A stretch of DNA of 64,000 nucleotides, taken from Magnetospiraceae bacterium (GTDB lineage Bacteria > Pseudomonadota > Alphaproteobacteria > Rhodospirillales > JBMYUJ01). The stretch lies in contig JBMYUJ010000004.1 in the NCBI GenBank assembly GCA_049605255.1, positions 1,954 through 65,953 on the forward strand, read 5' to 3'. A program made the position numbers and the translations under genes. The notes under the pieces were generated by a model, which worked only from the letters and a program-made list of their open reading frames with translations, was not told where the DNA came from and made no database searches. Of this stretch, positions 2,837 to 23,498 are shown one piece after another (position 1 is the stretch's first letter; every line of letters begins with the position of its first letter).

Positions 2837-5752
2837 GTGACCACGCCGATGCCCGCAGATACACCGTCCCTCGATTGCCGGGACCTGATTCAAACCGGCA
2901 TTGATCTCGCTGGGGAGCGGGACCTCGTCCGTTTGCAAATCCGATTGGTGACGGCGGCGGCCGAGATCGCACAGGCTGCGGGCGGCATTCTCTATATGTG
3001 GGACGACGCCGAGCGGTTGGTGCCCCAGACGTTGCATTTCCCCGATCTCGACCTGCCCGCCAAAAGCGAAGGCGCCGCCGCCCTTTGTACCGCGCTCGCA
3101 GGCATCGTGCCCGTTGTGGATCGCTCCGGCGTCGGGGCCGCCGATTGGCTGCCCGCCCAGGCCATCGCCCAGCGCGATACCCTTCAGGTGCCCACTTTGC
3201 AAGGGCAAAGCGGCGCGGCGGATATCGCCGCGTTCGACCGGGATACGTTGTTCCAAAGCGGTGCTGGGGTGGTCATTCCCCTATCCCTGGGGCCGCGCAG
3301 CCTGGGCTCGCTGCTGCTGATCCGGTCTGTGGAGGCCGGGGCGTTCGCGGCGCAGCCCGTGGCGTATGCCGCCTTGTTGGTGGCGCAGGCCGCCGGGCAT
3401 ATCAATTCCCTGCAAATGTATCGGCGCATGGTGACCACCAGCAGCGCGCTGATGGCGGAGCGGGACCCCCAAGCCCTGCTGGAACGAATCATCGTCGAGG
3501 CAAAATATCTTTCCGCCGCCGATGGGGCGTTGCTGTTCCTGCGCACGCCGGACAACGACTTGGATGCGGCGCTTATCGAAATCGATTCCAAGGGCTTGCG
3601 CCAGGATGGTCACACCAAGGAGACATCCGCGCTGCGCCCCGTGCACCTGTTCGATCCGCAAACCGGCGCACCGAACCGGGGCACCTATGCCAGCTTGGCG
3701 GCCCTGGATCAGAAAACCATCAAGATCGGCGATGTGCACTTGGAGCAAACCGATGCGGCGGCGGCTGTCGGTCAGTTCGATAAAGCTATGGCGTATCAGA
3801 CCCAGTCCATCCTGGCCGTGCCCATGGTAGACCGGCGGCGGGAAACCCTGGGGGTGCTCTATCTGGTCAACGCGCGGGATATAATGTCGGACGAGATCGT
3901 TTCCTTTGGCGATGATGTCTCGGTGATGATCGAAACCCTGGCGCGGCAGGCAGCCGAAGCCCTGGATAATCAGGCGGTGTATCGGGAGCTGGTGGAAACC
4001 GGCATTTCCCTATCGGCGGAGTTGGATCACGATTTGCTGCTGGAGAAGATCCTCCTGGAAGCCAAGGAGATCTGCCATGCGGAAGGCGGCTCCCTGTATC
4101 TGATTACGGAAGACGAACGCCTGGAATTTTCCATCGTTCATAACGACCATCTGAAAATCGCCATGGGTGGTAAGACCGGCCAGCCCATCACCCTGCCGGC
4201 GCTGCGGCTCTATGACGACGAAGGCAACGAGAACCATAATGCGGTGGCGACCCATGTGGCCTTGTCTGGCGAAACGGTGAATATTCAGGACGCCTACGAG
4301 GTGGAGGATTACGATTTTTCCGGCGCCAAGAAATTTGATGAAAGCCAGGGGTATCGGTCAAAATCCTTCCTCACCGTGCCCTTGAAGGACCGGGATAATC
4401 AGGTGATCGGCGTGCTGCAATTGATCAACGCACGCGATTGGGTGACGGAGGAAATCGTCCCCTTCAATGCCCAGGTCCAGCCGTTGGTGGAATCCCTGGC
4501 CTCCCAGGCCGCCGTCGCCTTGAACAACCAGCAACTGATGCAGGCGCAAAAGGATTTGCTGGTCTCTTTCATCCAGTTGATCGCGGGCGCCATCGACGCC
4601 AAGTCCCCCTATACCGGGGGCCATTGCCAGCGGGTGCCGGAACTCACCATGATGCTGACCAAGGCGGCCGTGAAGTCCGAAGCTGCGCCCTTCGCTGATT
4701 TCGACCTGAATGCGGATGAACTCTACGAGCTGCAGATCGCCGGGCTGCTGCATGACTGCGGCAAGGTCACCACGCCGGAATATGTGGTGGATAAGGCGAC
4801 CAAGCTGGAAACCATCTATAACCGCCTGCACGAGGTCCGCACCCGGTTCGAGGTCTGCAAGCGCGAAGCGGAAATCACCTATTACAAGGGTTTGGCCGAG
4901 GGGGGCGATGCCGCCGCCCTGAAACAAACTTTGGATGCGGAACTCACCGCCCTGGATGACGATTACGCCTTCGTTGCCGAATGCAATATCGGCGGCGAGT
5001 TCATGGACGATGGCAAGCTGGAACGGTTGGCGCAGATCGCCGCCCGCACCTGGACACGCACCCTGCCCGCCCGTATCGGTTTGTCCCAATCCGAAGAAAC
5101 CGATCTGTGCGCCGCGCTGGGCATCGCCGCCGCCGATTGGGCGCAAGCGCGGGATACGGAAGCCCTGCCGGTGACCGAACCGCTGCTGTATGACGCCGAC
5201 CATCACATCACCCGGCGCAACGCGGCGGAGCTGGGGAAGGTCTATGCCCAATACGGGATCAAGATGGATATCCCCGAACATGCCTTTAACCGGGGGGAGC
5301 TTTATAACCTTTCCATCCGGCGCGGCACCCTGACCGAGGAAGAACGGTTCAAGATCAACGACCATATCATTCAGACCATCATCATGCTGAACCATTTGCC
5401 GTTCCCGCGAACGCTCCGCCGGGTGCCGGAATATGCGGGCGGGCATCATGAGAAGATGGATGGTACCGGCTATCCCCGGCGGTTGATGAAGGAGGAGATG
5501 TCCCTGCCCGCGCGGGTCATGGCCATCGCCGATATCTTCGAGGCGTTGACCGCCAATGACCGGCCCTACAAGCCGCCGAAGACCCTGAGTCAGGCACTGA
5601 AGATCATGTCCTTCATGGTCAAGGATGCGCATATCGATCCAGACCTGTTCCAACTGTTCCTGGAATCCGGGGTCTATAAGGAATATGGCGACGCCTTCCT
5701 GGATCCGTCTCAGGTCGATGAGGTGGATGTCAGCCAGTATCTTGCCCATTGA
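2837..5752 (+). CDS. Multi-GAF-domain HD-GYP phosphohydrolase (probable c-di-GMP phosphodiesterase)
   Basis: 971-aa ORF. The C-terminus has HD (LLHDCGK) and [11 protein letters not shown] motifs, which define an HD-GYP domain. The N-terminal ~570 aa contain three repeats of a GAF-like pattern (e.g. GALLFLRTP..., [10 protein letters not shown]..., [10 protein letters not shown] / [10 protein letters not shown]). The start is GTG 2837 or ATG 2849. Confidence 0.85.
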
Positions 5753-11910: not shown

Positions 11911-12331
11911 CTACCGCGCTATCTGGGCAGAGATGGGAGAATTCCGCGGTTTTTCGGATCGCGGGGGGCGTTTCGGCGCGGGGGATGGTCGCAAATCCCC
12001 GACGGTGGAAATAGGGTTTCGCCGTATTGGTCAGCAGGTAAACGGCGGAATGGCCCGCTTTCTGGGCATAGGTCAGACTCGCCTCAACCAGGGCGGTGCC
12101 CAGGCCCGCACCGCGCTGATCCGTGCGCACGGCCAGGGACCGCAGCAGGCCGAGATCGCCGTGACACTCCACGCCCCCGCAGGCCAGAAGGTCGCCCGAT
12201 TCTGTCTGGGCCAGGAAAAACCGCGCAGGCGCGGAAGGCAAATCCTCGGTTGGCAGGCCGTTTGCGGTCAGCAAAGCGGTGATGGCCGGGAAATCTTCCG
12301 GTCGCGCGATCCGAACGGAAAACCCGCTCAC
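11891..12331 (-). CDS. GNAT-family N-acetyltransferase (ArsN2-like)
   Basis: C-terminal 146 aa of ORF 11891..12571: VRIARPEDFPAITALL...LRSLAVRTDQRGAGLGTALV...FSHLCPDSAVVM. It has the GNAT acetyl-CoA motif (Q/RxxGxG). GTG 12331..12329 overlaps the upstream gene's TGA. Confidence 0.75.
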   Translation of the reverse strand: MSGFSVRIARPEDFPAITALLTANGLPTEDLPSAPARFFLAQTESGDLLACGGVECHGDLGLLRSLAVRTDQRGAGLGTALVEASLTYAQKAGHSAVYLLTNTAKPYFHRRGFATIPRAETPPAIRKTAEFSHLCPDSAVVMCRKL

Positions 12332-13095
12332 GCCTCTTGCGGCGGTACCAGCTCCCGATAGGCATGCCAGGTGGCATAGGCCAGCACGGGCACGGCCACC
12401 GCCAGCCCCACCAGGGCGAGGGAGATGCCGAACCAGACCAGAAGGGCGATGGTAAAGGCCCAGCTCCACATCACATGGCTGTTGCGCAGCACGGCGCGGA
12501 TGCTCAGCATCACCGCTTCCACCGGCTCCAGGTCGCGGTCGATCAGCGAGGGGAAGGAGATCGCCCCGCATAAAAAAACCACGGCGGCAAAGAACAGGCC
12601 GATCAGCGAGCCCACCATGATCATGGCGAATCCTTCGCTGGTCAGGAGCTGTTCCACCACGCCGTCAATGGAATGGGTGCCAGAGCCCACGGCGATCCCG
12701 AAGACCAAGGACCCGATCAGGAACCAGGCCATCATCACGATGAGCAATGCCATGACCATCAGGCCGACCCGGCGGGGGCGTTTGCGCCACGCATCCCAGG
12801 TGGAGAAGAAGGTGGGTTTCTCGCCTTTTTCCAACTGGGAACTCACCTCATAAAGGCCAAGGGACATGAACGGCGCAAACAGCGCGAAGCCCCCGATCAG
12901 CGGCATCACCACATAAATCATACTGGCCTGCATGGCCATCCAGACCAGGGCATAGCCCGCAATGACGAACAAAGCGCCGTAGGTCAGGCTGACCGGCATG
13001 GCCTTTTTGAAATCCGCCCAACCGGAAAACAGCCAGCGCGCGGGCGCTTCCAGGTCCACCACGGCAATGGGTGTGTCATCAAAAACCGCCGACAT
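12328..13095 (-). CDS. DUF2189-like integral membrane protein
   Basis: 255-aa ORF with multiple hydrophobic helices. The N-terminus DLEAPARWLFSGWADFKKAMPVSLTYGALFV resembles DUF2189 proteins (from memory). Confidence 0.65.
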   Translation of the reverse strand: MSAVFDDTPIAVVDLEAPARWLFSGWADFKKAMPVSLTYGALFVIAGYALVWMAMQASMIYVVMPLIGGFALFAPFMSLGLYEVSSQLEKGEKPTFFSTWDAWRKRPRRVGLMVMALLIVMMAWFLIGSLVFGIAVGSGTHSIDGVVEQLLTSEGFAMIMVGSLIGLFFAAVVFLCGAISFPSLIDRDLEPVEAVMLSIRAVLRNSHVMWSWAFTIALLVWFGISLALVGLAVAVPVLAYATWHAYRELVPPQEA

Positions 13096-13256
13096 CCGGG
13101 CTCTCTCCCCTTGGTTGATCGAACATTCAACTTTGCTTGATTTCCGGCCAGACTATACGGGTATGGCGCGCAGAAGCAAGAACCATGGGGGCTGCACAGC
13201 CCGGAAAGAAACCGCTACACTATGGCCCAGAAAAGAGGACCCGGGAGGATAGACCC

Positions 13257-13931
13257 ATGACCCATCAACCCAGATTCGCTGTCGTGCTGTCCGGCTGCGG
13301 CGTGTATGACGGCGCGGAAATCCACGAAGCCGTGCTGACCCTGCTGGCCATTCAGAAAAACGGCGGCAATTACGATTGCTTCGCCCCCGATGTGGACCAG
13401 CATCATGTGATCAACCATCGCACCGGCGATGAAATGCCCGAAACCCGCAATGTGCTCACGGAATCGGCGCGTATCGCCCGGGGCGCCATTGCGCCGCTCG
13501 CCGATTTCAACGCGGCGGATTACGATGCCATCATCTTTCCCGGCGGATTCGGGGCGGCAAAAAACCTGTGCACCTTTGCCTTCGATGGGGCCGATTGCAC
13601 AGTGAATGACGATGTGGCCCAGGCGGTGGCGGCCATGGTCGCGGCGGGTAAGCCCATCGGCGCGCTGTGCATCGCCCCGGCCTTGATGGCGAAAGTGATG
13701 GCGGGTGCCACGCTGACCATCGGGCAGGACGAGGGTACCGCCCAGGCCATCGAATCCATGGGCGCCAAGCATCAGAAGACCACCCATGCGGAAGTGGTGG
13801 TGGACCCGGCTCGCAAGCTGGTCACCTCGCCCTGCTATATGCTGGATGCCACCATCAGCCAGATCGCCGAGGGCGCGGATAACGCGGTCAGGGCGGTCTT
13901 GGGGCTTATGGAGACGCGGAAGGCCGCTTGA
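13257..13931 (+). CDS. elbB: DJ-1/PfpI-superfamily glyoxalase ElbB
   Basis: From ATG 13257, MTHQPRFAVVLSGCGVYDGAEIHEAVLTLLAIQKNGG...FPGGFGAAKNL...CIAPA is very close to the E. coli ElbB pattern. GGGAGGA lies upstream. The ORF-track start at 13137 over-extends. Confidence 0.8.
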   Translation: MTHQPRFAVVLSGCGVYDGAEIHEAVLTLLAIQKNGGNYDCFAPDVDQHHVINHRTGDEMPETRNVLTESARIARGAIAPLADFNAADYDAIIFPGGFGAAKNLCTFAFDGADCTVNDDVAQAVAAMVAAGKPIGALCIAPALMAKVMAGATLTIGQDEGTAQAIESMGAKHQKTTHAEVVVDPARKLVTSPCYMLDATISQIAEGADNAVRAVLGLMETRKAA

Positions 13932-15213
13932 ACACCGCCACCAGCTCCACATGGGCAGCGAAGGGGAATTGATCGACGGGGGTGACCTTATCCAGGTGAT
14001 ATCCCCCGTCGGCAAGAAGGCGCGCGTCTCGGACGAAAGTGGCGGGGTTGCAGGAAACCCCGACGACGACGGGCACCTGCGAAGCGGCAATCGCCTCGGC
14101 CAACACCTTGGCCCCCGCCCGGGGCGGATCGAACACCAACCCATCCAGGCCCGCCAGATCCGCCGGCGTTGGCGGTTGACGGGTCAGGTCCCGTTTGAGA
14201 ACGGTGAGGCGTCCCGCCCGGCCCGGGTCGCGCGCGGCGGCCTGCAAGGTGGCGATGGCCCCCGCATCGCCTTCATATGCGGTCACCCGCCGGGTATCCT
14301 CCTTCGCCAGCAGCGCCAGCGCAAAAGTGCCCGATCCGGCATGAAAATCCGCGATCCGCTGGCGTCCCGCCAGGGCATCGCAGACCAGGTCGGTCAAAAT
14401 CGCCGCGCCTTCCGCGCTGGGTTGCAAGAACCCGCCCGGGGGAAGGGGCACGCCCGCGCCGCCGAAATCCGCCAAGACAGGGGCGCGCTGCGCCAGGAGT
14501 TCCGGCGCGTCCTCGGGCTTGTGCCGCCAGGTCAGGCGGGCGATCTGCGCCTCCTCAGCAAAGCGGGACAAAGCCTCGCGCCCCGCCAGGTCTGGCCCTT
14601 TGGGCAGGGTAAGGACCATATCCACCGTCTTCCCCACGGCGGTAACTGCGATATCGGCGCTGGCCCCCGGCGCCAAAAGCAGGGCGAGGATCTGGCGCAA
14701 GGGGGCAAGCACCCGATTGAGTGGCGCCACCAACAGCGGGCAATGGTCCACATCCATGATCTGATGGCTGGCCCGGGCGTTGAAGCCCAGGATCACGCCC
14801 TTGGCGATCCGGCGCGCCGCCAGGGTAGCCCGCCGCCGCGACGGTACCGGTGTTTTGCGCAAAGGGCCGAGGCCGATCTCAAAGCCCCGCTTTTGCAAGG
14901 CCTCCCGCACCAGTCCCGTTTTCCAGGCATCGTAAAAATCCGGCGCCAGGTGCTGCACGGCGCAGCCGCCGCAGCTTCCAAAATGGGGGCAGAGCGGGTC
15001 GGCTCTGTGTGGTCCGGCCCGTGTGATCCGATCCAGCCGACAGGCAAGGCCATCGCCCCGCGCCGCCTCCGTGGTCACCGCCACTTGGTCGCCCGGCGCG
15101 GTGAACGGGATATAGAGCGGGGTGCCGTTATGGACCGCCAGTCCATCCCCGCGCGCGCCCAGGGCGTCGACGGTTACGGTGAGGCTATGTGATTTAAATT
15201 TCGTTTTTTTCAA
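13906..15213 (-). CDS. TRAM-domain class I SAM-dependent RNA (uracil-5) methyltransferase (RlmD/RumA family)
   Basis: 435-aa ORF with an N-terminal TRAM-like segment, a Cys cluster (CPHFGSCGGCAVQHL) and a SAM fold (DFHAGSGTFALAL, FDPPRAGA, SCNPATF). The TTG start at 15213 overlaps the upstream TGA (TTGA). Confidence 0.8.
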   Translation of the reverse strand: MKKTKFKSHSLTVTVDALGARGDGLAVHNGTPLYIPFTAPGDQVAVTTEAARGDGLACRLDRITRAGPHRADPLCPHFGSCGGCAVQHLAPDFYDAWKTGLVREALQKRGFEIGLGPLRKTPVPSRRRATLAARRIAKGVILGFNARASHQIMDVDHCPLLVAPLNRVLAPLRQILALLLAPGASADIAVTAVGKTVDMVLTLPKGPDLAGREALSRFAEEAQIARLTWRHKPEDAPELLAQRAPVLADFGGAGVPLPPGGFLQPSAEGAAILTDLVCDALAGRQRIADFHAGSGTFALALLAKEDTRRVTAYEGDAGAIATLQAAARDPGRAGRLTVLKRDLTRQPPTPADLAGLDGLVFDPPRAGAKVLAEAIAASQVPVVVGVSCNPATFVRDARLLADGGYHLDKVTPVDQFPFAAHVELVAVFKRPSASP

Positions 15214-15806
15214 AGCGCTTGAGCAATATCGCTAAGAAACTGCATAAAGATACGATCTGCGGCTTGGTTCAGCGCTTCCACCGTGGCATCCACCGAATCT
15301 TCGGTCAGGGGCACCGATTCCGCGTAGGGTTTCAAAACGGTCATGTGATAGTCCCGGTCGCCGCGCAAGCCCAGTTCCATTTGCAACATGGCCTGGGGTT
15401 GGGCGCCGATGCTCTGTTCCAGCCGCAAGATACGACCCGTAATCACCCAATCCGCATCCACACGCAGATCGGGGCGCACCACGGACCCGCTCAGGCCCGA
15501 TTGGCGGATCAATTCGGCGAGCCGCTCGCGCAGCAGGTCCCCCGGTGGTTCCGCCCAGAGGTGATAGCGATATTCCACCAGCTTGTTGGGCGCGGCAGCC
15601 TCCGTATAAAGCAGCTGCCGTCCGCCGGTAATACCCGCAGCGGTAAACCGATCGACCATCACCACGCCGTTGAGGGCGCGCGGCGCCTGGGGGATTTCCG
15701 CCGAAGATCCGGTGAACCGGTAAAACAGGTCGGGTGGCGCGGGCGGGGCGGCGGTGCAGCCCGTCAGAACAGCAAGCAGGGCAAAGCTGGCAAGGAATTT
15801 TCTCAT
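15210..15806 (-). CDS. ABC-transport auxiliary lipoprotein (PqiC/DUF330-like)
   Basis: 198 aa with a lipobox signal peptide, MRKFLASFALLAVLTGC. It sits immediately after the MCE protein with an ATGA overlap. Confidence 0.7.
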   Translation of the reverse strand: MRKFLASFALLAVLTGCTAAPPAPPDLFYRFTGSSAEIPQAPRALNGVVMVDRFTAAGITGGRQLLYTEAAAPNKLVEYRYHLWAEPPGDLLRERLAELIRQSGLSGSVVRPDLRVDADWVITGRILRLEQSIGAQPQAMLQMELGLRGDRDYHMTVLKPYAESVPLTEDSVDATVEALNQAADRIFMQFLSDIAQAL

Positions 15807-16948
15807 CGGCGGGTCCCCCGGTCGTCGCCGGTCTCGCTGCCGCGCAGCAGGATACTGGGATCATTGCGTAATCGCCGTCCCAGTTCGTTGAAGTTGCGGC
15901 TGGCGCCTTCCACATTGGCGGCGATGGAATCGATATGGCGGGCCAAGGCGTCGCTCACATGGCGCAGGTCGGCCAGCATGGCGCGCACCGCCTTGCTGTT
16001 CTCCTTCACGGCCAGATCGACGGTTTCCGCCGCGCCCTTTACGGTGCCGACGATGGCATTGGCATTGGCCACCATGCTATCCGCGTTCTTGGTGATATTG
16101 GTGACGTTCTTCACCAGGCCCTTGGCGTCGGTCACCAGGCCGTCCACATTTTTCACCACGCCGCCCACGTCGCCAATCACGCCGTTTGCGTCATCCACGG
16201 TGCCGTCCACCTTGGCCAGCGTCTGACCCAAAACCGCCGACAAGCCGCGCAAATCGCTGACCAACTTGTTAGTATTGGCCAAGATGCCGGGAATGCTGTT
16301 GGGATTATCGCTGTTGGCCACGTCGCTGAGCGCGGCGAGGGTCAGCGCCAATTCATCCAAAATCTTGGGCAGGCGCTTGTTTAAATGGCCCAAGGTGACC
16401 TTCACCTCGGTGATCAGCTTGCCGCCATCGCCTTCCAGAAGGACCGCGATATCGGTGCTGACCCGCTCTACCGCGATCAATACCGGTTTCAGGTCCCGCC
16501 CCAGTTCGGCCACCTGGGCCGCCACCGTGGTCAGGGAATTGAAGATGTTGGATGCTTCCTCGCTCGGGATTTCCGCCCCTTGGGCCAGGGCGACGGTGCT
16601 ATCGCCCGCATGGATATTGATCACGATGGGAGACAACAAGGTGGGTGCCTCGATCCGGGCGATGGAATCATCGGGGATGATCCAATCGTCATCGATGCTG
16701 AGGATAATTTCGAACCGCATCTGCCCGCTGCGCTCCACCGGGTTGACCGTTTCCACCTGGCCGATGCGATAACCTTCGTACAGAACCTGGGTGCCGTATT
16801 TGATGCCGGTCACGTTGTCGTAAACGGTAAGATATTGCACTGTGGCGCCGCGCTGCCCGGTCAGGAAGGAGATGGAGGTAATCACCCCGGCGAGGATTAT
16901 GACGACAAACAGGCCGATGATGACATAATTGAATTTATTGCTTTTCAT
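15803..16948 (-). CDS. MlaD/MCE-domain protein (substrate-binding component of an Mla/Pqi-type transporter)
   Basis: 381 aa. It has an N-terminal TM helix, then an MCE-domain pattern (VTGIKYGTQVLYEGYRIGQVETV), followed by a long repetitive helical C-terminus. Confidence 0.85.
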   Translation of the reverse strand: MKSNKFNYVIIGLFVVIILAGVITSISFLTGQRGATVQYLTVYDNVTGIKYGTQVLYEGYRIGQVETVNPVERSGQMRFEIILSIDDDWIIPDDSIARIEAPTLLSPIVINIHAGDSTVALAQGAEIPSEEASNIFNSLTTVAAQVAELGRDLKPVLIAVERVSTDIAVLLEGDGGKLITEVKVTLGHLNKRLPKILDELALTLAALSDVANSDNPNSIPGILANTNKLVSDLRGLSAVLGQTLAKVDGTVDDANGVIGDVGGVVKNVDGLVTDAKGLVKNVTNITKNADSMVANANAIVGTVKGAAETVDLAVKENSKAVRAMLADLRHVSDALARHIDSIAANVEGASRNFNELGRRLRNDPSILLRGSETGDDRGTRR

Positions 16949-16964
16949 GGTTTCGTCATCCGTC

Positions 16965-17801
16965 CTACAAGCGCCGCGCGGTATCCGCCGAGGTATCCAC
17001 CGCCACGCCGGTCAAGCGTTCCAAATATTCGTCGGGCCGCAGTATATCTTCCTCCGTGCGCCGGTTAAGCAGGTTTTGCACCCGTTCATTTTTGCTGTCC
17101 TTCACCTCGGCCACCGTGCCCAGGAACAAAAGGTCCCCTTTATCCAGCACGGCGATGCGGTCGGCGATCTTGAAGGCGCTTTCCAATTCATGGGTCACCA
17201 CCACGATGGTCATATCCATGGCGGCGCGCAGATCCAACAGCAAATCATCGATCTGGGCGGAAACCACCGGGTCCAACCCAGCGGAAGGTTCATCGCAAAA
17301 CAACAATTTGGGATCCATGATGATGGCCCGCGCCAGGGCCGCGCGTTTCAGCATGCCGCCCGAAAGCTCCGACGGCATGAGATCGCCGAACCCGGCCAGG
17401 TCCACCACTTCCAGCTTCAGGCGCGCCATGATTTCCTGGGTTTGCGGGTCCAGTTTCGTGTGTTCCGACAGGGGCAGCATGATGTTCTGCGCGACCGTGA
17501 GGGAACTCAGCAAGGCCCCACCCTGAAAGGCCACACCCATTTCGCGGCGCAGGGCCAGCAGCTCCTTCAAGCCCAAGCTGGACGTATCTTGCCCCAGAAT
17601 TTTCACCGAACCAGAAGTGCGGATTTCCAAACCCAATAAATGGCGCAAGAAGGTACTTTTACCCGAGCCGCTACCGCCCATGATCACCAAGACCTCACCC
17701 GCCGCGATATCCAGGCTGATGCCATTCAGAATCTTGCGGCTGCCGTAATGGGCCACCAGGTCGCGCACCTCGATGATGGGGGCCGTATTTGTATCGGTCA
17801 C
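16965..17801 (-). CDS. ABC transporter ATP-binding protein (MlaF-like)
   Basis: Walker A GGSGSGKST, signature LSGGMLKRAALARA, Walker B LLFCDEPSAGLD. GTG 17801 is preceded by AGGAG. The ORF-track start at 17927 over-extends into the permease gene. Confidence 0.9.
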   Translation of the reverse strand: MTDTNTAPIIEVRDLVAHYGSRKILNGISLDIAAGEVLVIMGGSGSGKSTFLRHLLGLEIRTSGSVKILGQDTSSLGLKELLALRREMGVAFQGGALLSSLTVAQNIMLPLSEHTKLDPQTQEIMARLKLEVVDLAGFGDLMPSELSGGMLKRAALARAIIMDPKLLFCDEPSAGLDPVVSAQIDDLLLDLRAAMDMTIVVVTHELESAFKIADRIAVLDKGDLLFLGTVAEVKDSKNERVQNLLNRRTEEDILRPDEYLERLTGVAVDTSADTARRL

Positions 17802-17812
17802 GGGCGCTCCTC

Positions 17813-18631
17813 TTAATGGGTGGTCAGGAAAACGAACAGCATATCGGTCACCACGATGGCGGAAATGGCCTGCACCACCGATCGGGTGGTCGCCTTGCCC
17901 ACCCCTTCGGCGCCGCCCTCGACCCAAACCCCGTTGGCGACCCCGATGAGCGTGATCTGCGCGGCAAAAATCACACTCTTGCCCAACCCGTGGAACAAGT
18001 CATCGACCGACAGGAAATCCACCACGTCTTGGAAGTAAGCGGGCAGACTCAGGCCCAGTTCGATGGACACATACAGCCCCGCCGCAGCCAGCCCCATCAC
18101 ATCGGCAAAAAAGGTGAGGCAGGGCACCATGACCATCATTGCCAGCAAAGCCGGGACCACCAGATAACGCACCGGGTTGATGCCCATGACCCGCAGAGCA
18201 TCGATCTCTTGATTGATTTTCATGGTGCCGATGCGGGCCGCCAGGGCAGACCCAGACCGGCCCGCCACCAGAATACCGGTGATGAGCGCCGCGAACTCCC
18301 GCACGACGGAAATGGCGATGCCGAAGGTCACATGCCCCTCGGCGCCGAAAATCCGTAAGGTGTAAATGCCCTGGATGGCCAGCATCACGCCGATGGTGGC
18401 GGATAGCACGCCGACGATGGGGATGGCGCGGATGCCCACCTCCATCATTTCCATAAACACGGCGTTGACCCGAACGGGCTGTTTGTAGCGGGGCCCGGCA
18501 ATCAGCCAAAAAGCGCTTTCCACCAACAGGGTGGCGCCATAGCCCAATTCCTCCACCATGCGGGCGGTGCCGCGACCAAGGCGTTCCAGGAAACGAAGAA
18601 CGGGGCTGGGGGAGGACGGCGAATCACTCAT
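17813..18631 (-). CDS. MlaE-family ABC transporter permease
   Basis: 272-aa hydrophobic ORF with an MlaE/YrbE-like pattern (IAISVVREFAALITGILVAGRSGSALAARIGTMKINQEIDAL). Confidence 0.85.
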   Translation of the reverse strand: MSDSPSSPSPVLRFLERLGRGTARMVEELGYGATLLVESAFWLIAGPRYKQPVRVNAVFMEMMEVGIRAIPIVGVLSATIGVMLAIQGIYTLRIFGAEGHVTFGIAISVVREFAALITGILVAGRSGSALAARIGTMKINQEIDALRVMGINPVRYLVVPALLAMMVMVPCLTFFADVMGLAAAGLYVSIELGLSLPAYFQDVVDFLSVDDLFHGLGKSVIFAAQITLIGVANGVWVEGGAEGVGKATTRSVVQAISAIVVTDMLFVFLTTH

Positions 18632-18957
18632 GCGGTGGCGAGCGCTTCATCCAGGGTGTCGACGATGGTGAACACCTTATCCAGCCGGGCCAGCTTCAAC
18701 GCCCGCAGGGCCTTGTCGTTCACCGCCGCCAGCACCAGGGTTTGTTTTTCGGCCCGCGCTTTTTGAAAAGCCTCGATCAGGCTGGCGATGCCGGAACTGT
18801 CGATATACGGCACGGCGGACAGGTCCACCACCACCAGCGGGCTTTCCTTCACCGCGGTTAAAAGCGCTTCCCGCGCGGCGCGGGAGGTATCCAAATCCAC
18901 ATCCCCCTCGAAGGCGACTATCAGCGCGGCCCCAGACCGGGTCGTTTGCGTTTTCAT
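18628..18957 (-). CDS. STAS-domain protein (anti-sigma-factor antagonist SpoIIAA/RsbV type; positionally MlaB-like)
   Basis: 109 aa with VVDLSAVPYIDSSGIASLIEAF, the conserved DSSG phospho-serine motif of SpoIIAA/RsbV. ATGA overlaps occur at both ends (18954..18957 and 18628..18631). Confidence 0.8.
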   Translation of the reverse strand: MKTQTTRSGAALIVAFEGDVDLDTSRAAREALLTAVKESPLVVVDLSAVPYIDSSGIASLIEAFQKARAEKQTLVLAAVNDKALRALKLARLDKVFTIVDTLDEALATA

Positions 18958-19391
18958 GGTCGAAAGGCCCCTCTCTCGATCGTCTTGCGCATGATCAATT
19001 CATTCCCCACACCGTCGCGGCCCGGTTTGAAATCCACCGAATCCATGCAAGACCGCATGAAATAGACCCCCAGGCCCCCAGGGCGGATTTCCGCCAGATC
19101 GCGGGTGGTCACCGCCGCCATATCCAGGGTCGGCGCATAATCCCGCAATCGGATTTCCAACACCGTTCCGGCAAGACTTAGCATGACCTCGATCTCGCCG
19201 TCCGCCCCCTGATAACCATGGCGGATTATATTCTGGCAGGCTTCGTCTACCGCCCGCACGATATCGTCTTGTTCGCCCTCGCCGCAACCCAGGCATCGTA
19301 GCAACCCCCGCAAGCTGCCGCGCAGCAGTTTTAACCGGGCCGGTTTCGCCGGCAACCGAAATGTCATCAGGGGCTTGGCGCTCTCCGGCAT
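18954..19391 (-). CDS. Anti-sigma regulatory factor-type Ser/Thr protein kinase (RsbW/SpoIIAB-like HATPase_c)
   Basis: From ATG 19391: MPESAKPLMTFRLPAKP...VDEACQNIIRHGY (N-box) ...LRDYAP...RPGGLGVYFM (G-box). About 145 aa, the typical size for RsbW-like kinases. Confidence 0.7.
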   Translation of the reverse strand: MPESAKPLMTFRLPAKPARLKLLRGSLRGLLRCLGCGEGEQDDIVRAVDEACQNIIRHGYQGADGEIEVMLSLAGTVLEIRLRDYAPTLDMAAVTTRDLAEIRPGGLGVYFMRSCMDSVDFKPGRDGVGNELIMRKTIERGAFRP

Positions 19392-19555
19392 GATGGAGCC
19401 TCTCTTACAAATTCGCCAGGCTGGCGCGCCGATGGCAGTCACTATGACCGCATCACATCGCCGCAGCAAACATTGCCAACTTGATTTAACAGCAAAAAGG
19501 TAAAAAAATAATCCACCGCCGCGCGAGTCCCTGCTCGCGGCAGAAGGAAGAGATC

Positions 19556-20452
19556 ATGGCAAAAAAACCAAAAACGACAGACGGCAAAAGCGGCAATGGC
19601 AAAAGCACCTCTGCGAGTGTCCCCATAGCGGATTCCCTGAGCGGCGACATTAAAGCGGATCAGCCTAAGAAAAAGCTGTCCTCGGAGGCATATAATGACG
19701 CCCTGGCCAAGCTGCATGTGGAACTGATCAAGCTGCAAGAGTGGGTCAAAAATGAAGGGCTGAAAGTGGTGGTGGTCTTTGAAGGTCGCGATGCGGCGGG
19801 CAAGGGCGGCACCATCAAGCGCATTACCGAGCCTCTCAACCCTCGTATCTGCCGGGTGGTCGCCCTGGGCACCCCGACGGAAAAGGAAAAAACCCAATGG
19901 TATTTCCAACGTTACGTGGCCGAGCTGCCTGCGGCGGGGGAAATCGTGCTGTTCGACCGCAGTTGGTATAACCGGGCCGGGGTCGAGCGGGTGATGGGTT
20001 TTTGCGAGGACGAGGAATATCGGGAATTCCTCCGCAGTTGCCCGGAATTCGAACGCATGCTGGTGCGTTCTGGCATCATTCTGGTGAAATACTGGTTTTC
20101 GGTCAGCGACGAAGAACAGGAACGCCGATTCGCCGCGCGGGCCAAAAACCCCCTCAAGCGCTGGAAACTCAGCCCCATGGATTTGGAGTCCCGCCGCCGC
20201 TGGGTGGAATATTCCATGGCGAAAGACGTTATGTTCGCCCATACGGATATCAAACAGGCGCCCTGGTTTGTGGTCAATGCGGATGTGAAAAAGCGGGCGC
20301 GGCTGAACTGTATCAGCCATCTCTTGAGCATGATCCCCTACGAAGATCTGACCCCGGGCCCGATCGATCTGGACCCCCGCGAGGAGGACAAACGGGCGGG
20401 ATATGTACGCCCGCCCCTGGAAGATCAGAATTTCGTGCCCGAAGTCTATTGA
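19556..20452 (+). CDS. ppk2: Polyphosphate kinase 2
   Basis: 298 aa with VVVVFEGRDAAGKGGTIKRI (Walker A of PPK2), FDRSWYNRAGVERVMGF and a PPK2 lid region. GAAGGAAGAG lies upstream of the ATG. Confidence 0.9.
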   Translation: MAKKPKTTDGKSGNGKSTSASVPIADSLSGDIKADQPKKKLSSEAYNDALAKLHVELIKLQEWVKNEGLKVVVVFEGRDAAGKGGTIKRITEPLNPRICRVVALGTPTEKEKTQWYFQRYVAELPAAGEIVLFDRSWYNRAGVERVMGFCEDEEYREFLRSCPEFERMLVRSGIILVKYWFSVSDEEQERRFAARAKNPLKRWKLSPMDLESRRRWVEYSMAKDVMFAHTDIKQAPWFVVNADVKKRARLNCISHLLSMIPYEDLTPGPIDLDPREEDKRAGYVRPPLEDQNFVPEVY

Positions 20453-20528
20453 TCCCACGAATCCCACAGTCCCACATCTGATTTCGCCTCTCCCATACCG
20501 ATTCTTTTGAAAGAACCCTGAACGCGCC

Positions 20529-21905
20529 ATGGACCGGATTTCCCTGATCGATACCGCCGCAGACGCAATCCCCGTGGTGGTGGTGAGCCCTAACACGGTG
20601 GATCAATTTTTCGCCTCCCATCCTGAAGCTGCCGCTTGGCTGGGGGCGTCTGGGTTTCAGGGCAAGCCGGGCACGGCGGCGCTCTACCCGGCCGCGACTG
20701 GCGGCCCGGCAGGGGCGGTGGTCGGCATCGGCGCGGATTTCCCGTTGCAGCATTGGGCGGCAGTGGCGGCGAGCCTGCCTGCCGGGACCTACACCCTTGA
20801 CCCCAAGATAGAACCCGCGACGGCGGAACAGGCAGCGCTTGGGTGGGCGTTGGCGGGATACCGATTCGACCGCTACAAGTCCTTTCCCGATGATATGGCC
20901 AAACTGGTCTGGCCCGCGGGCATCGACCGGGCGGCGGTGGCGCGGCTTGTGGAGGCCAATTTCCTGGCCCGGGATTTGGTCAACACCCCCGCCCAGGACA
21001 TGGGCCCCGAGCAATTGGCCGCCCGGGCCGAAGATGTGGCAAAGGCCTTTGGGGCACAGTTTTCCGTGATCATCGGCAATAAACTGTTGGATCAGGGCTA
21101 TCCCGCCGTGCATGCGGTGGGGCGCGCCGCCGCGCAAGCGCCAAGGCTGATCGAGATCACTTGGGGCGCGCCGGATGCCCCGCGCGTGACCCTGGTCGGC
21201 AAGGGGGTATGCTTCGATACGGGCGGGCTGGATATTAAGTCCGCAGGGGGTATGAAGCTGATGAAAAAGGATATGGGCGGGGCGGCCCATGTGCTGGCGT
21301 TGGGGCAGATGATCATGGCCGCCGCGTTGCCGGTGCGCCTGCGGATTCTCATTCCAGCGGTGGAAAATGCCGTGGCTGGCAATGCCTTGCATCCCCTGGA
21401 TGTGGTCCCCACCCGGTCGGGCAAAACCATCGAAATTGGTCATACGGATGCGGAAGGCCGGGTGATCCTGTCTGATGCGCTCGTCGAGGCGGTGCGCGAG
21501 GACCCTGCCTTGGTCATTGATATGGCCACGCTCACGGGGGCGGCCCGGGTTGCCTTGGGCACTGATCTTCCTGCCCTGTTCAGCAATGATGATGCCTGGG
21601 CAGACTCGGTCCTGGCGCAGGGGCTGTCCCAAGGTGATCCCCTTTGGCGGCTGCCACTCTGGGCACCGTACCGGCCGTTCCTGGACTCCGGGGTCGCCGA
21701 TATTTCCAACGAGCCCGCTTCCCCTTTCGGGGGGGCGATTACTGCCGCCTTGTTCCTGAAGGATTTCGTGGGCGAAAAGACGCCCTGGATGCATATTGAC
21801 CTGATGGCTTGGAATCCGCGCGGGCGGCCCGGGCATCCGGAGGGTGCCGCGGCGCAAGGCCTGCGCGCGCTCTTCGGTGCGATTGCAGAACGATTCCCGG
21901 CCTGA
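20529..21905 (+). CDS. M17-family leucyl aminopeptidase
   Basis: 458 aa with VGKGVCFDTGGLDIKSAGGMKLMKKDMGGAA and NTDAEGR-like HTDAEGRVIL, the M17 metal-binding signatures. Confidence 0.85.
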   Translation: MDRISLIDTAADAIPVVVVSPNTVDQFFASHPEAAAWLGASGFQGKPGTAALYPAATGGPAGAVVGIGADFPLQHWAAVAASLPAGTYTLDPKIEPATAEQAALGWALAGYRFDRYKSFPDDMAKLVWPAGIDRAAVARLVEANFLARDLVNTPAQDMGPEQLAARAEDVAKAFGAQFSVIIGNKLLDQGYPAVHAVGRAAAQAPRLIEITWGAPDAPRVTLVGKGVCFDTGGLDIKSAGGMKLMKKDMGGAAHVLALGQMIMAAALPVRLRILIPAVENAVAGNALHPLDVVPTRSGKTIEIGHTDAEGRVILSDALVEAVREDPALVIDMATLTGAARVALGTDLPALFSNDDAWADSVLAQGLSQGDPLWRLPLWAPYRPFLDSGVADISNEPASPFGGAITAALFLKDFVGEKTPWMHIDLMAWNPRGRPGHPEGAAAQGLRALFGAIAERFPA

Positions 21906-21995
21906 TCCTATTTTCCGCTTTTTTCGGTTCCAACGTTGCGACTCGTTCCGCTTTAGGGTAGAAAGAACCGGGATCGAAATAAAAATGTTTTGAAA

Positions 21996-22340
21996 ATGGA
22001 TCTACAACCCCATAAGGCCTTGGATCTTTGGCGAATCGCCACCTTGGAAGGCGTGCGGCAAGAATCGCCCGATCTGTCGGCGCGGCAGATGGCGTTGCTG
22101 CTGACGGTCTACCTGACCCCGCCGCCGCATACAGTGCGGGGCTTGGCCGAAGCGCTAAACGTTTCCAAACCGGCGGTGACCCGGGCCATTGATCGTCTGG
22201 TCGCCCATGACCTGATCCGTCGCAAGCCGGATGAACATGACCGGCGCAGCGTGTTGATCCAACGCACGGTCAAGGGGTCGGTGTTTTTGCGGGAATTTGG
22301 CGAAACCATCGCCCATGCGGCAGGCAATCTGGATCGCTAG
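21996..22340 (+). CDS. MarR-family (winged-helix) transcriptional regulator
   Basis: About 115 aa with LSARQMALLLTVYL...VRGLAEALNVSKPAVTRAIDRLVAHDLIRRKPDEHDRRSVLIQRT, the MarR wHTH pattern. The start is ATG 21996 or TTG 21990. Confidence 0.7.
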   Translation: MDLQPHKALDLWRIATLEGVRQESPDLSARQMALLLTVYLTPPPHTVRGLAEALNVSKPAVTRAIDRLVAHDLIRRKPDEHDRRSVLIQRTVKGSVFLREFGETIAHAAGNLDR

Positions 22341-22366
22341 CAGGTGTTTGCACGGATGCGTCCGGC

Positions 22367-23377
22367 TCAGGTGCCGTTATCGGCCAACCGTTTTTGCCGT
22401 ACCGGGTCTCGGAACCGGCCCAGATAAGACGGCAGCACCACTTCCGCCAGCGTCGGGGTGATTCCCAGGCTTTCCAAGGTGTTGGCATCCTTCGCCACCA
22501 CATTGTCCTTTTCCAGCAATTTGACCTGATCGCGGGTGATCAACGGGTTGGGCAACCAGCCGACCAAGGCCCCTTGAATACGCGCCAGCCACAGGGGCAC
22601 GGGAAGCAACCGGCGGGGCCGTTCCACCTGGTCGAGCACCAGTTCCATCAATTCCTTGAAGCTGTACACCCGAGGGCCGCCTAATTCGAAGGTTTTGCCC
22701 GCATGGGCCGGGTTTTGCAGCCCGGCCAGGATCGCATCGGCCACGTCGCACACATAGACCGGTTGGAACTTGGGCCCGCCATCACCGAAGAAATCGATGG
22801 ATAGGGGCGGGAAGCTAACCTTGGGCATCGACGGTGCGCCGATCACGGGCAACATCCGCAGGATGCGGGACATGCTGGCAAATTTATTGAAGAAATTATC
22901 TTCCGGGCCGAAGACCACGCTGGGCCGCAGGATCACCGCGCTGGGAAAAGCCTCCCGCACCGCCGCTTCGCCTTGCCCCTTGGTTCGGGCATAGTCTGCG
23001 GCGCTGTTAATATCGGCGCCGATGGCTGACACATGCACAAACCGGCTAGCCCCCGCTGCTGCCGCGGCCTTGGCGATATTGCCCGCGCCTTCCCCATGGA
23101 TCTTATCGAAGCTGTTGCCGCCGAATGGCGCGAGGATACCCACCAGGTTGACGACCCAATCGGCGCCCTCTACCGCTTTGCCAACCGCTGCCGTATCGGT
23201 AACGGAAGCGACAACCGAAACCACTTGCCCCGGCACACCGGCGGTGCTCAGAAAGCGCGCGCTTTCCGCGTCGCGGGTGACCACGCGGACCTGCGCGCCT
23301 GTTGCCGCGAGCCGCCGAACCACATGGCGCCCAATGAATCCCGCGCCGCCAAAAACCGTTACGATGGGTTGTTTCAT
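22367..23377 (-). CDS. NAD(P)-binding SDR-family protein, complex I NDUFA9-like
   Basis: From ATG 23377: MKQPIVTVFGGAGFIGRHVVRRLAATGAQVRVVTRD, a Rossmann GxxGxxG. About 336 aa overall with an NDUFA9/NmrA-like look. Confidence 0.8.
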   Translation of the reverse strand: MKQPIVTVFGGAGFIGRHVVRRLAATGAQVRVVTRDAESARFLSTAGVPGQVVSVVASVTDTAAVGKAVEGADWVVNLVGILAPFGGNSFDKIHGEGAGNIAKAAAAAGASRFVHVSAIGADINSAADYARTKGQGEAAVREAFPSAVILRPSVVFGPEDNFFNKFASMSRILRMLPVIGAPSMPKVSFPPLSIDFFGDGGPKFQPVYVCDVADAILAGLQNPAHAGKTFELGGPRVYSFKELMELVLDQVERPRRLLPVPLWLARIQGALVGWLPNPLITRDQVKLLEKDNVVAKDANTLESLGITPTLAEVVLPSYLGRFRDPVRQKRLADNGT

Positions 23378-23498
23378 CGCGCTTCCCCCTGGCCCCCATG
23401 TACCATCTTGATGCGTGCTTTCGCTTATACCCCGAGACGATGGGCTTTCCAAGCCACAACACACCTAAGTATTCCTGCCTGATGCGCCGCAATGGCGG

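Follow-up and report, generated by a model that had tools for sequence, protein, structure and literature searches.

What is a partner-switching kinase doing at the head of a lipid-transport operon? The question is raised by a six-gene operon of a Magnetospiraceae bacterium, located at positions 15210-19391 (minus strand) of the 64,000-nucleotide (nt) stretch of contig JBMYUJ010000004.1 that we analyzed (hereafter, the window). In this operon, the genes for an RsbW/SpoIIAB-type serine kinase and a STAS protein directly precede those for an MlaE-family permease, an MlaF-like ATPase, an MCE protein and a lipoprotein. Comparison with related loci suggests that the kinase and the STAS protein probably belong to a partner-switching module that has an Mpc-type lipid transporter as its output and works via a phosphorylatable, MlaB-like STAS subunit. 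A sequence-only reading of the window had proposed such an MlaB-like STAS protein, switched by a dedicated kinase, in place of sigma factor control, and the comparative tests described below lend support to that proposal.

To our knowledge, post-translational regulation of lipid traffic between the two bacterial membranes is largely uncharted. Operons of the kind described here encode a STAS protein beside the transporter, together with its presumptive kinase and, in most cases, a ligand-sensing phosphatase, and a dedicated kinase/phosphatase pair for an MlaB-like subunit would come as a surprise to lipid-transport specialists.

The kinase-STAS-transporter arrangement recurs in several phyla

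Two surveys were conducted from opposite ends of the operon. In the kinase-seeded survey, an alignment of kinase homologues was scanned over one genome per GTDB species, yielding at least 521 relatives; the counts given below refer to the best 80 of these, which were annotated with the window proteins as queries. In the MlaE-seeded survey, MlaE alone was searched against metagenome contigs, and the denominators represent those loci having enough flanking sequence. Kinase and STAS genes were found together in essentially all of the best 80 kinase-seeded loci, and they were followed on the same strand by MlaE, MlaF, MCE and lipoprotein genes wherever the contig reached that far, with L058 and L071 as exceptions. 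Likewise, the MlaE-seeded loci contained STAS in 77/77 cases, kinase plus STAS in 68/68, a PP2C phosphatase plus kinase plus STAS in 60/60, and MlaF plus MCE plus lipoprotein in 53/53. Since about 160 independent loci share it, the arrangement is far beyond chance. The concern that the adjacency might be a one-off in this genome is thereby removed, given that the same layout was recovered in both search directions and from several phyla.

As labelled, the best 80 loci comprised about 40 from Rhodospirillales or other Alphaproteobacteria, 18 from Gammaproteobacteria (mostly Lysobacterales), 6 from Myxococcota or 'Deltaproteobacteria', 2 from Nitrospirota, and single metagenome-assembled genomes (MAGs) labelled Planctomycetaceae, Spirochaetales and others. 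Even the Planctomycetota kinases, which are 34% identical to that of the window, were still located within kinase-STAS-MlaE triads. Four of these 80 loci are from cultured organisms (i.e., Paramagnetospirillum caucaseum SO-1, P. kuznetsovii LBB-42, Terasakiella pusilla DSM 6293 and Tahibacter aquaticus DSM 21667), so that the question of MlaB-type phosphoregulation is directly testable.

Some loci were organized differently. Two from Planctomycetota (L084:7001-8694 and L086:6607-8266) presented the kinase-STAS-MlaE triad only, with MlaF and MCE genes not adjacent. A third, from the MAG labelled Spirochaetales (L071:7693-10692), encoded a GAF-PP2C-kinase, a STAS protein and an MlaF-like ATPase, with no MlaE, MCE or lipoprotein gene nearby. 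Apparent STAS-MlaE fusions at roughly 10 loci of the first scan proved to be artefacts of open reading frame (ORF) extension, as domain-level parsing resolved them into separate ORFs.

A sensor-PP2C phosphatase is part of the family and is missing from the window

A SpoIIE-type PP2C phosphatase was encoded upstream of the kinase in 75 of the 80 kinase-seeded loci, being fused to the kinase in 44 of them (i.e., a single polypeptide of about 560-610 amino acids, aa) and separate in the other 31. All 74 phosphatase ORFs that we scanned contained the SpoIIE domain, their catalytic Asp residues were invariant, and their sensor domains were of the GAF (64), HDOD (7) or REC (1) type. The window kinase is the counterpart of the C-terminal domain of the GAF-PP2C-kinase fusions of its relatives, as judged by an alignment at 50% identity with the Paramagnetospirillum caucaseum fusion (553 aa; aligned residues, 424-551). 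Given that sensor-PP2C, kinase and STAS are kept together, the conserved unit is a complete partner-switching set joined to a transporter, and retention of the phosphatase in the same operon across the family argues for a real phosphorylation cycle.

In the window, a family hidden Markov model detected no PP2C catalytic domain within the 64 kb. The earlier statement that the operon lacks a phosphatase was therefore correct for the window and incorrect for the family, which normally has a PP2C. A weak 'PP2C' match at window positions 2837-5752 (plus strand) was rejected, since it was due to shared GAF domains; the 971-aa signalling protein encoded there combines two or three GAF domains with an HD_5 domain of the HD-GYP type and is presumably a cyclic-di-GMP phosphodiesterase.

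A 12-gene block of synteny connects window positions 12328-23464 with L169:1-12819 and also with L170, both of which are Rhodospirillales MAGs, at protein identities of 35-74%. The shared genes are, in order, NmrA-like, MarR, M17 peptidase, PPK2, kinase, STAS, MlaE, MlaF, MCE, lipoprotein, RlmD-like methyltransferase and DJ-1. The sole difference in gene content is a 1.3-kb gene for a 431-aa GAF-SpoIIE protein, which in L169/L170 separates PPK2 from the kinase; at this place the window has a divergent intergenic region of 164 nt (19392..19555), and we found no PP2C remnant upstream of the window kinase. Because GAF-SpoIIE is the one difference across these 12 genes, the window represents a derived case, from a lineage that lost the GAF-PP2C gene.

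Such a loss could have left a decaying relic in this genome, in which the kinase has dropped out of the switch and STAS persists as a constitutive or constitutively phosphorylated subunit. That the phosphatase is the only gene missing from the syntenic block, with no PP2C elsewhere in the 64 kb, would fit this explanation, as would the pattern of divergence: relative to L169, the kinase is 39% identical, compared with 58% for STAS, 69% for MlaE and 73% for MlaF (MCE and lipoprotein, ~35%), making it the fastest-diverging among the cytoplasmic and permease proteins of the block. Relaxed or altered constraint following phosphatase loss could account for that divergence. Nevertheless, we deem a relic improbable, because the kinase ORF is intact and has kept every invariant catalytic residue, the window STAS protein retains the invariant YIDSSG, and the translational coupling of the genes is preserved. 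Moreover, loci lacking an adjacent PP2C also occur in distant lineages (L010, L051 and L081), and at L084 a GAF-SpoIIE phosphatase is encoded 4 kb downstream, past unrelated housekeeping genes, indicating that the phosphatase can act in trans. A trans-acting phosphatase is thus possible for the window genome as well.

Sigma factors are not conserved neighbours of the module

Public annotation assigns this family a different role. In the JGI annotation, its STAS proteins are termed 'anti-sigma B factor antagonist' and its kinases 'anti-sigma regulatory factor' (P0142, P0152, P0154 and many others), and NCBIfam places the pair nearest to RsbW/RsbV. These assignments are in keeping with a kinase/STAS(/PP2C) module that controls a sigma factor or other target encoded elsewhere and is only co-transcribed with the transporter, for example within a shared envelope-stress regulon, and so is locus L058, which retains PP2C-kinase-STAS with no MCE genes adjacent. 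To our judgment this is the least probable of the alternatives weighed here, and quite unlikely in itself. When all flanking ORFs of 82 loci (the 80 kinase-seeded loci plus L001 and L002) were clustered, no gene family outside the cassette occurred in more than 11 loci and none was a sigma factor; the recurring families were APS (adenosine 5'-phosphosulfate) kinase, cytochrome oxidase subunits, rRNA/tRNA methyltransferase and signalling proteins. Similarly, a search with approximate SigF/RpoE query sequences turned up nothing sigma-like among the window ORFs, and just 3 of ~164 loci had ECF-like (extracytoplasmic function) ORFs in their flanks, although the unbiased clustering is the weightier of the two results. 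The absence of a sigma factor pointed out in the sequence-only reading thus extends from the window to the conserved neighbourhood, within the limits of approximate queries. A target elsewhere is also difficult to reconcile with a linkage that spans Alpha- and Gammaproteobacteria, Myxococcota, Nitrospirota and Planctomycetota in both search directions, with the translational coupling of STAS to MlaE and the existence of a STAS-MlaE fusion, or with the co-variation of STAS and MlaF described below. Because no sigma factor is linked to the module in ~160 loci, the 'anti-sigma' label is probably misleading.

The kinase and the STAS protein retain the residues expected of a phosphorylation switch

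The kinase gene (18954..19391, minus strand; 145 aa) is the first of the operon, and its product matched Pfam HATPase_c_2 at 1.2e-24 and, among PDB entries, RsbW (6m36) at 5.5e-10. Its AlphaFold2 model (predicted local distance difference test, pLDDT, 82.7) was matched by Foldseek to RsbW 6m37_A (TMt 0.87) and SpoIIAB 1l0o_A (0.77). Equivalog scores in NCBIfam were far lower than required for either name (RsbW, 62 versus a cut-off of 145; SpoIIAB, 37 versus 135). Both motifs recognized in the earlier reading, EACQNIIRHG and GGLGVYFM, are present in the window kinase, as is DSSG in the STAS protein. Across 157 family kinases, residues E50, N54, H58, D84, R97, G105 and G106 were 100% conserved and G108 was 99% conserved, and the G1 box was D-x-A in 98%, the classical motif being D-x-G. 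With its catalytic residues invariant in 157 sequences, the kinase is not dead on alignment, a possibility that had been raised as potentially fatal to the idea of a switch.

The STAS protein (18628..18957, minus strand; 109 aa) matched Pfam STAS at 8.1e-19. Its DSSG motif is encoded at 18790-18801 and corresponds to residues 53-56, the first Ser of which (Ser54, codon 18796..18798, minus strand) is the predicted phospho-acceptor. The block Y51-I-D53-S54-S55-G56-x-A58-x-L60 was invariant in 82/82 family STAS proteins. According to the AlphaFold2 model (pLDDT 93.5), the protein adopts a canonical STAS fold, in which Ser54 is the first residue of helix alpha2. In a HMMER alignment to chain 6xbd_K, S54 pairs with T52 of E. 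coli MlaB, a residue at the center of the MlaB-MlaF interface whose substitution in T52E weakens binding (PMC7367683).

By sequence and fold, the STAS protein resembles RsbV, SpoIIAA and TM1442 more closely than MlaB. In NCBIfam it scored 68.6 bits against the anti-sigma-antagonist superfamily model TIGR00377 (cut-off, 53.45). Foldseek returned TM1442, RsbV and SpoIIAA at TM 0.83-0.91, compared with TMq 0.66-0.70 (24-27% identity) for MlaB chains. Single-chain AlphaFold2 models and Foldseek confirm the folds and do not distinguish an 'MlaB-like' from an 'RsbV-like' function.

Fusion and co-variation point to the STAS protein as a probable part of the transporter

At locus L087, the STAS and MlaE domains form a single 386-aa protein (P0036), which keeps YIDSSGIASLVE and is encoded directly downstream of a GAF-SpoIIE-kinase gene. 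This protein is the only called STAS-MlaE fusion in the family; the window encodes STAS as an ORF of its own.

A mirror-tree analysis was applied to 100 complete loci, using partial correlations of distance matrices; it took the place of complex models of STAS-MlaF and STAS-kinase. The STAS-MlaF partial correlation was 0.45 (bootstrap 0.30-0.55), equal to that of the positive control MlaE-MCE (0.45), and MlaF was the top partner of STAS in 300/300 bootstraps. The corresponding values were 0.17 for STAS-kinase and -0.07 for STAS-MlaE, and co-variation of the kinase with the transporter was low (kinase-MlaF, 0.03; kinase-MlaE, 0.14). The STAS-MlaF signal persisted when redundant loci were removed (0.44) and when the genome half of the data was taken by itself (0.47). 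As indirect evidence, this pattern is what would be expected if STAS touched MlaF on one side and both phosphatase and kinase on the other. Its translational coupling to MlaE, the P0036 fusion, the STAS-MlaE fusion protein MpcE of Brucella (see below) and its co-variation with MlaF all point to STAS belonging to the transporter.

The same data bear on the main rival of this interpretation, in which the kinase itself is the effector that binds and inhibits MlaF or MlaE, and unphosphorylated STAS merely sequesters the kinase and is not an MlaB-like subunit. Such a scheme would follow the canonical logic of RsbW/RsbV and CrsR/CrsA (PMC6482189), would suit a STAS protein whose fold and sequence are nearer to RsbV/SpoIIAA than to MlaB, and would account for retention of the kinase-STAS-MlaE core even where MlaF is not adjacent. 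However, it agrees poorly with a STAS-MlaF correlation far above those of kinase-MlaF and kinase-MlaE, and with the covalent joining of STAS to MlaE both in P0036 and in the kinase-less Mpc operon of Brucella. Tethering of the kinase to a large GAF-PP2C protein in 44/80 loci is compatible with an effector kinase, although not predicted by it. We therefore consider an effector kinase unlikely, though it is the alternative to be taken most seriously, and favor STAS as the component that contacts the transporter. The earlier designation of STAS as 'MlaB-equivalent' gains support from its position, the Ser54/T52 correspondence and its co-variation with MlaF, but not from its sequence and fold.

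The transporter resembles the Mpc type, and the six genes are tightly packed

The six genes, in the order kinase, STAS, MlaE, MlaF, MCE and lipoprotein, were confirmed at 15210-19391 by the ORF list and Pfam. The permease (17813..18631, minus strand; 272 aa) matched Pfam MlaE at 5.4e-68 and scored 208.4 bits against TIGR00056, slightly below the cut-off of 212.2; its relatives numbered 4711 at E<=1e-10, many being 65-72% identical. The ATP-binding cassette (ABC) ATPase (16965..17801, minus strand; 278 aa, GTG start; Pfam ABC_tran 1.3e-30) was most similar among PDB chains to Acinetobacter baumannii MlaF (2.3e-52), followed by mycobacterial MceG (8.9e-51) and E. coli MlaF (1.6e-44), and its best NCBIfam model was MlaF (176 bits). 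The single-MCE-domain, MpcD-like protein (15803..16948, minus strand; 381 aa) carries Pfam MlaD at residues 39-114 (1.9e-10) and matched TIGR00996 at 5.5e-22; beyond the MlaD domain, ~265 residues had weak Pfam matches to helical and coiled-coil families. The last gene (15210..15806, minus strand; 198 aa) encodes a PqiC/MpcA-like outer-membrane lipoprotein (Pfam ABC_trans_aux, PF03886, 2.7e-12), whose N-terminus, MRKFLASFALLAVLTGC, contains the lipobox LTGC.

Against the NCBI Mla equivalog models, MlaE scored 145.1 bits (cut-off, 315), MlaF 176 (441), MlaD 46.3 (135) and MlaB 26.4 (90), so these four proteins do not constitute orthologues of the E. coli Mla set. Neither MlaC nor MlaA is encoded among the operon genes, the PqiC-like ABC_trans_aux lipoprotein being present instead. 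Overall, the transporter half appears to be of the Mpc type.

Genes overlap by 4 nt at the kinase/STAS junction (ATGA, read directly) and at the STAS/MlaE and MCE/lipoprotein junctions (from ORF coordinates), whereas gaps of 11 nt and 16 nt separate MlaE from MlaF and MlaF from MCE, respectively. Thus, the gene set, coordinates, overlaps and 11-16 nt gaps originally reported were all reproduced by ORF coordinates, Pfam and direct reading. The kinase starts with ATG, preceded by an AGAGAGG-like ribosome-binding site, and the GTG start of MlaF lies 11 nt past the MlaE stop codon and 5 nt past GAGGAG. The PPK2 gene upstream (19556-20452, plus strand) is oriented divergently, which places the kinase gene at the head of the operon. 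Scans for promoters and terminators across 13800-19700 produced counts not above those of shuffled sequence and were not used; no promoter-like sites in the 19392..19555 spacer were reported by the scan.

Comparison with known systems

As in E. coli MlaFEDB, which has MlaB as its STAS subunit (PMC7367683, PMC5016091), an MlaE-type permease, an MlaF-like ATPase, an MCE protein and a small STAS protein are encoded together in the window. In contrast to the window STAS protein, which has DSSG and an adjacent kinase gene, E. coli MlaB is shorter, has DTGG, and has no known kinase or phosphatase; phosphoregulation of MlaB has been proposed as an open possibility, with no kinase known in E. coli (PMC7367683). 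The window MCE protein is also longer than MlaD (381 versus 183 aa), and a PqiC-like lipoprotein replaces MlaC/MlaA.

A closer parallel for the transporter half, judged by its published description, is the Mpc system of Brucella abortus (MpcE-F-D-A), a chimeric Mla-Pqi system that is likewise alphaproteobacterial and comprises a permease, an ATPase, a long single-MCE protein (MpcD, 331 aa, versus 381 aa in the window) and a PqiC-like lipoprotein. In MpcE, STAS and MlaE are fused, and the STAS part was called an MlaB homologue (PMC12436622). Whereas in Brucella STAS is fused to the N-terminus of the permease and the four-gene operon was described with no kinase or phosphatase (PMC12436622), in the window STAS is separate, translationally coupled and preceded by a kinase, with a GAF-PP2C in addition in its relatives.

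The regulatory half is most like HsbR/HsbA of Pseudomonas and CrsR/CrsA of Shewanella, in which a single polypeptide made up of sensor, PP2C and RsbW-like kinase domains determines whether a single-domain STAS protein is phosphorylated (PMC6482189), and the GAF-PP2C-kinase proteins of the present family have the same domain order. The sensor of HsbR/CrsR is a receiver domain, as opposed to GAF, HDOD or REC here, and the outputs of these systems are FlgM/FliA, HsbD and RpoS, HsbD being a non-sigma partner of HsbA (PMC6482189); in the present family, transporter subunits are the only conserved neighbours. The same three protein families and a phospho-Ser site at the N-terminus of helix alpha2 are shared with SpoIIAB/SpoIIAA/SpoIIE and RsbW/RsbV/RsbU of Bacillus, and RsbW/SpoIIAB and RsbV/SpoIIAA are the best structural matches of the kinase and STAS protein. 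Unlike the Bacillus systems, ours has no sigma factor, the G1 box of the kinase is D-x-A, and scores fall far below the RsbW/SpoIIAB equivalog cut-offs.

A non-sigma output has also been reported for HenR/All4160 of Anabaena, where a PP2C and a kinase act on a STAS protein that controls an exopolysaccharide biosynthetic enzyme, phosphorylation being negative, and such direct enzyme control was presented as an extension of the partner-switching concept (bioRxiv 10.64898/2026.04.08.717354). That module differs from the one in the window in that it targets an enzyme, has its kinase genes elsewhere and involves no MCE system. In the literature open to full-text search, subscription-only papers being outside its reach, we found no kinase or PP2C linked to an MlaE, MlaB or MCE operon, in agreement with the sequence-only reading, which knew of no described example; where the searchable papers pair 'MlaE' with 'anti-sigma', the latter merely names the STAS domain.

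A proposed switch on a lipid transporter

We propose that the operon product is a trans-envelope lipid transporter of the Mpc type, whose cytoplasmic STAS subunit would be the substrate of a dedicated partner-switching module. The sensor domain (mostly GAF, in some relatives HDOD or REC) would control the PP2C, which would take the phosphate off Ser54 of STAS, and the RsbW-type kinase, often fused to the phosphatase, would re-phosphorylate that residue. Unphosphorylated STAS would bind MlaF, as E. coli MlaB does, and support its ATPase activity and assembly of the complex; phospho-STAS would dissociate, turning the transporter off. Phosphorylation is known to disrupt the complexes of SpoIIAA and RsbV. 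It is on that basis, and because T52E weakens MlaF binding in E. coli MlaB, that we assign this direction to the last two steps. In the window version, STAS may be mostly phosphorylated, the phosphatase may be encoded elsewhere, or the kinase may act chiefly by binding its partner in an ATP/ADP-dependent manner. Our observations cover the genes present, their conservation and synteny, and the motifs, folds and co-variation of their products, whereas the transfer of phosphate, the binding of STAS to MlaF and the direction of regulation are what we infer.

A number of points weigh against this proposal. First, the evidence for all family members is comparative and not biochemical, and the window, having no phosphatase, is not a genome for which a reversible switch can be shown. 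Second, the closer resemblance of the STAS protein to RsbV, SpoIIAA and TM1442, together with its MlaB equivalog score (26.4 bits, under the cut-off of 90), does not favor an MlaB-like role. Third, the mirror-tree correlations, standing in for complex models, are indirect evidence, and in the metagenome half of the data the PP2C was a stronger partner of STAS (0.53) than was MlaF (0.33). Fourth, two loci deviate from the layout, i.e., L058, where an APS kinase gene comes after those for GAF-PP2C-kinase and STAS and MCE genes are lacking, and L071, where only MlaF follows STAS. Fifth, the D-x-A G1 box, which may affect ATP binding, is a caveat for the predicted kinase activity. Finally, E. coli MlaB T52A is itself non-functional (PMC7367683), which makes the sign of regulation uncertain.

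Taking both sides together, we lean modestly towards the view that these operons represent a widespread and undescribed class of partner switch that gates an MCE lipid ABC transporter directly, and not transcription, with STAS coupling MlaF to the permease in one phospho-state. To a similar degree, we favor regarding that class, which would extend over Alpha- and Gammaproteobacteria, Myxococcota, Nitrospirota and Planctomycetota, as the natural counterpart of the phosphoregulation hypothesized for E. coli MlaB. The parts are of known kinds and it is their wiring that is new. If the view is true, a membrane transporter would join the outputs of partner switching and provide a rare bacterial case in which a dedicated switch based on Ser phosphorylation gates an ABC transporter, and the widespread label 'anti-sigma B factor antagonist' would be corrected for this family.

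Neighbouring genes

Several genes adjacent to the cassette recurred at related loci. Directly downstream in the window is a gene for an RlmD-like methyltransferase (tRNA_U5-meth_tr; 13906-15213, minus strand), whose TTG start overlaps the stop codon of the lipoprotein gene (TTGA), so that it may be co-transcribed as a seventh operon gene. In wider searches of 167 loci, an RlmD-like methyltransferase gene was detected in 41, directly downstream of the cassette.

The wider searches also detected an APS kinase (CysC-like, PF01583) in the fetched flanks of 39/167 loci, mostly close behind the lipoprotein gene and on the same strand (e.g., L018, L019, L022, L028, L095, L101, L134 and L162); the window is without one. 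At L058:9904-10647, on a complete Rhodospirillales chromosome, the APS kinase gene directly follows those for GAF-PP2C-kinase and STAS, and at L081:6567-8480 a CysN/CysC fusion is encoded just upstream of kinase-STAS-MlaE. This linkage may be mere synteny or may reflect a tie to PAPS (3'-phosphoadenosine-5'-phosphosulfate) or sulfated lipids.

PPK2 is also encoded divergently upstream in Terasakiella pusilla (L039:4009-5613) and in L169/L170 (L169:2780-3583), an adjacency that looks like local alphaproteobacterial synteny.

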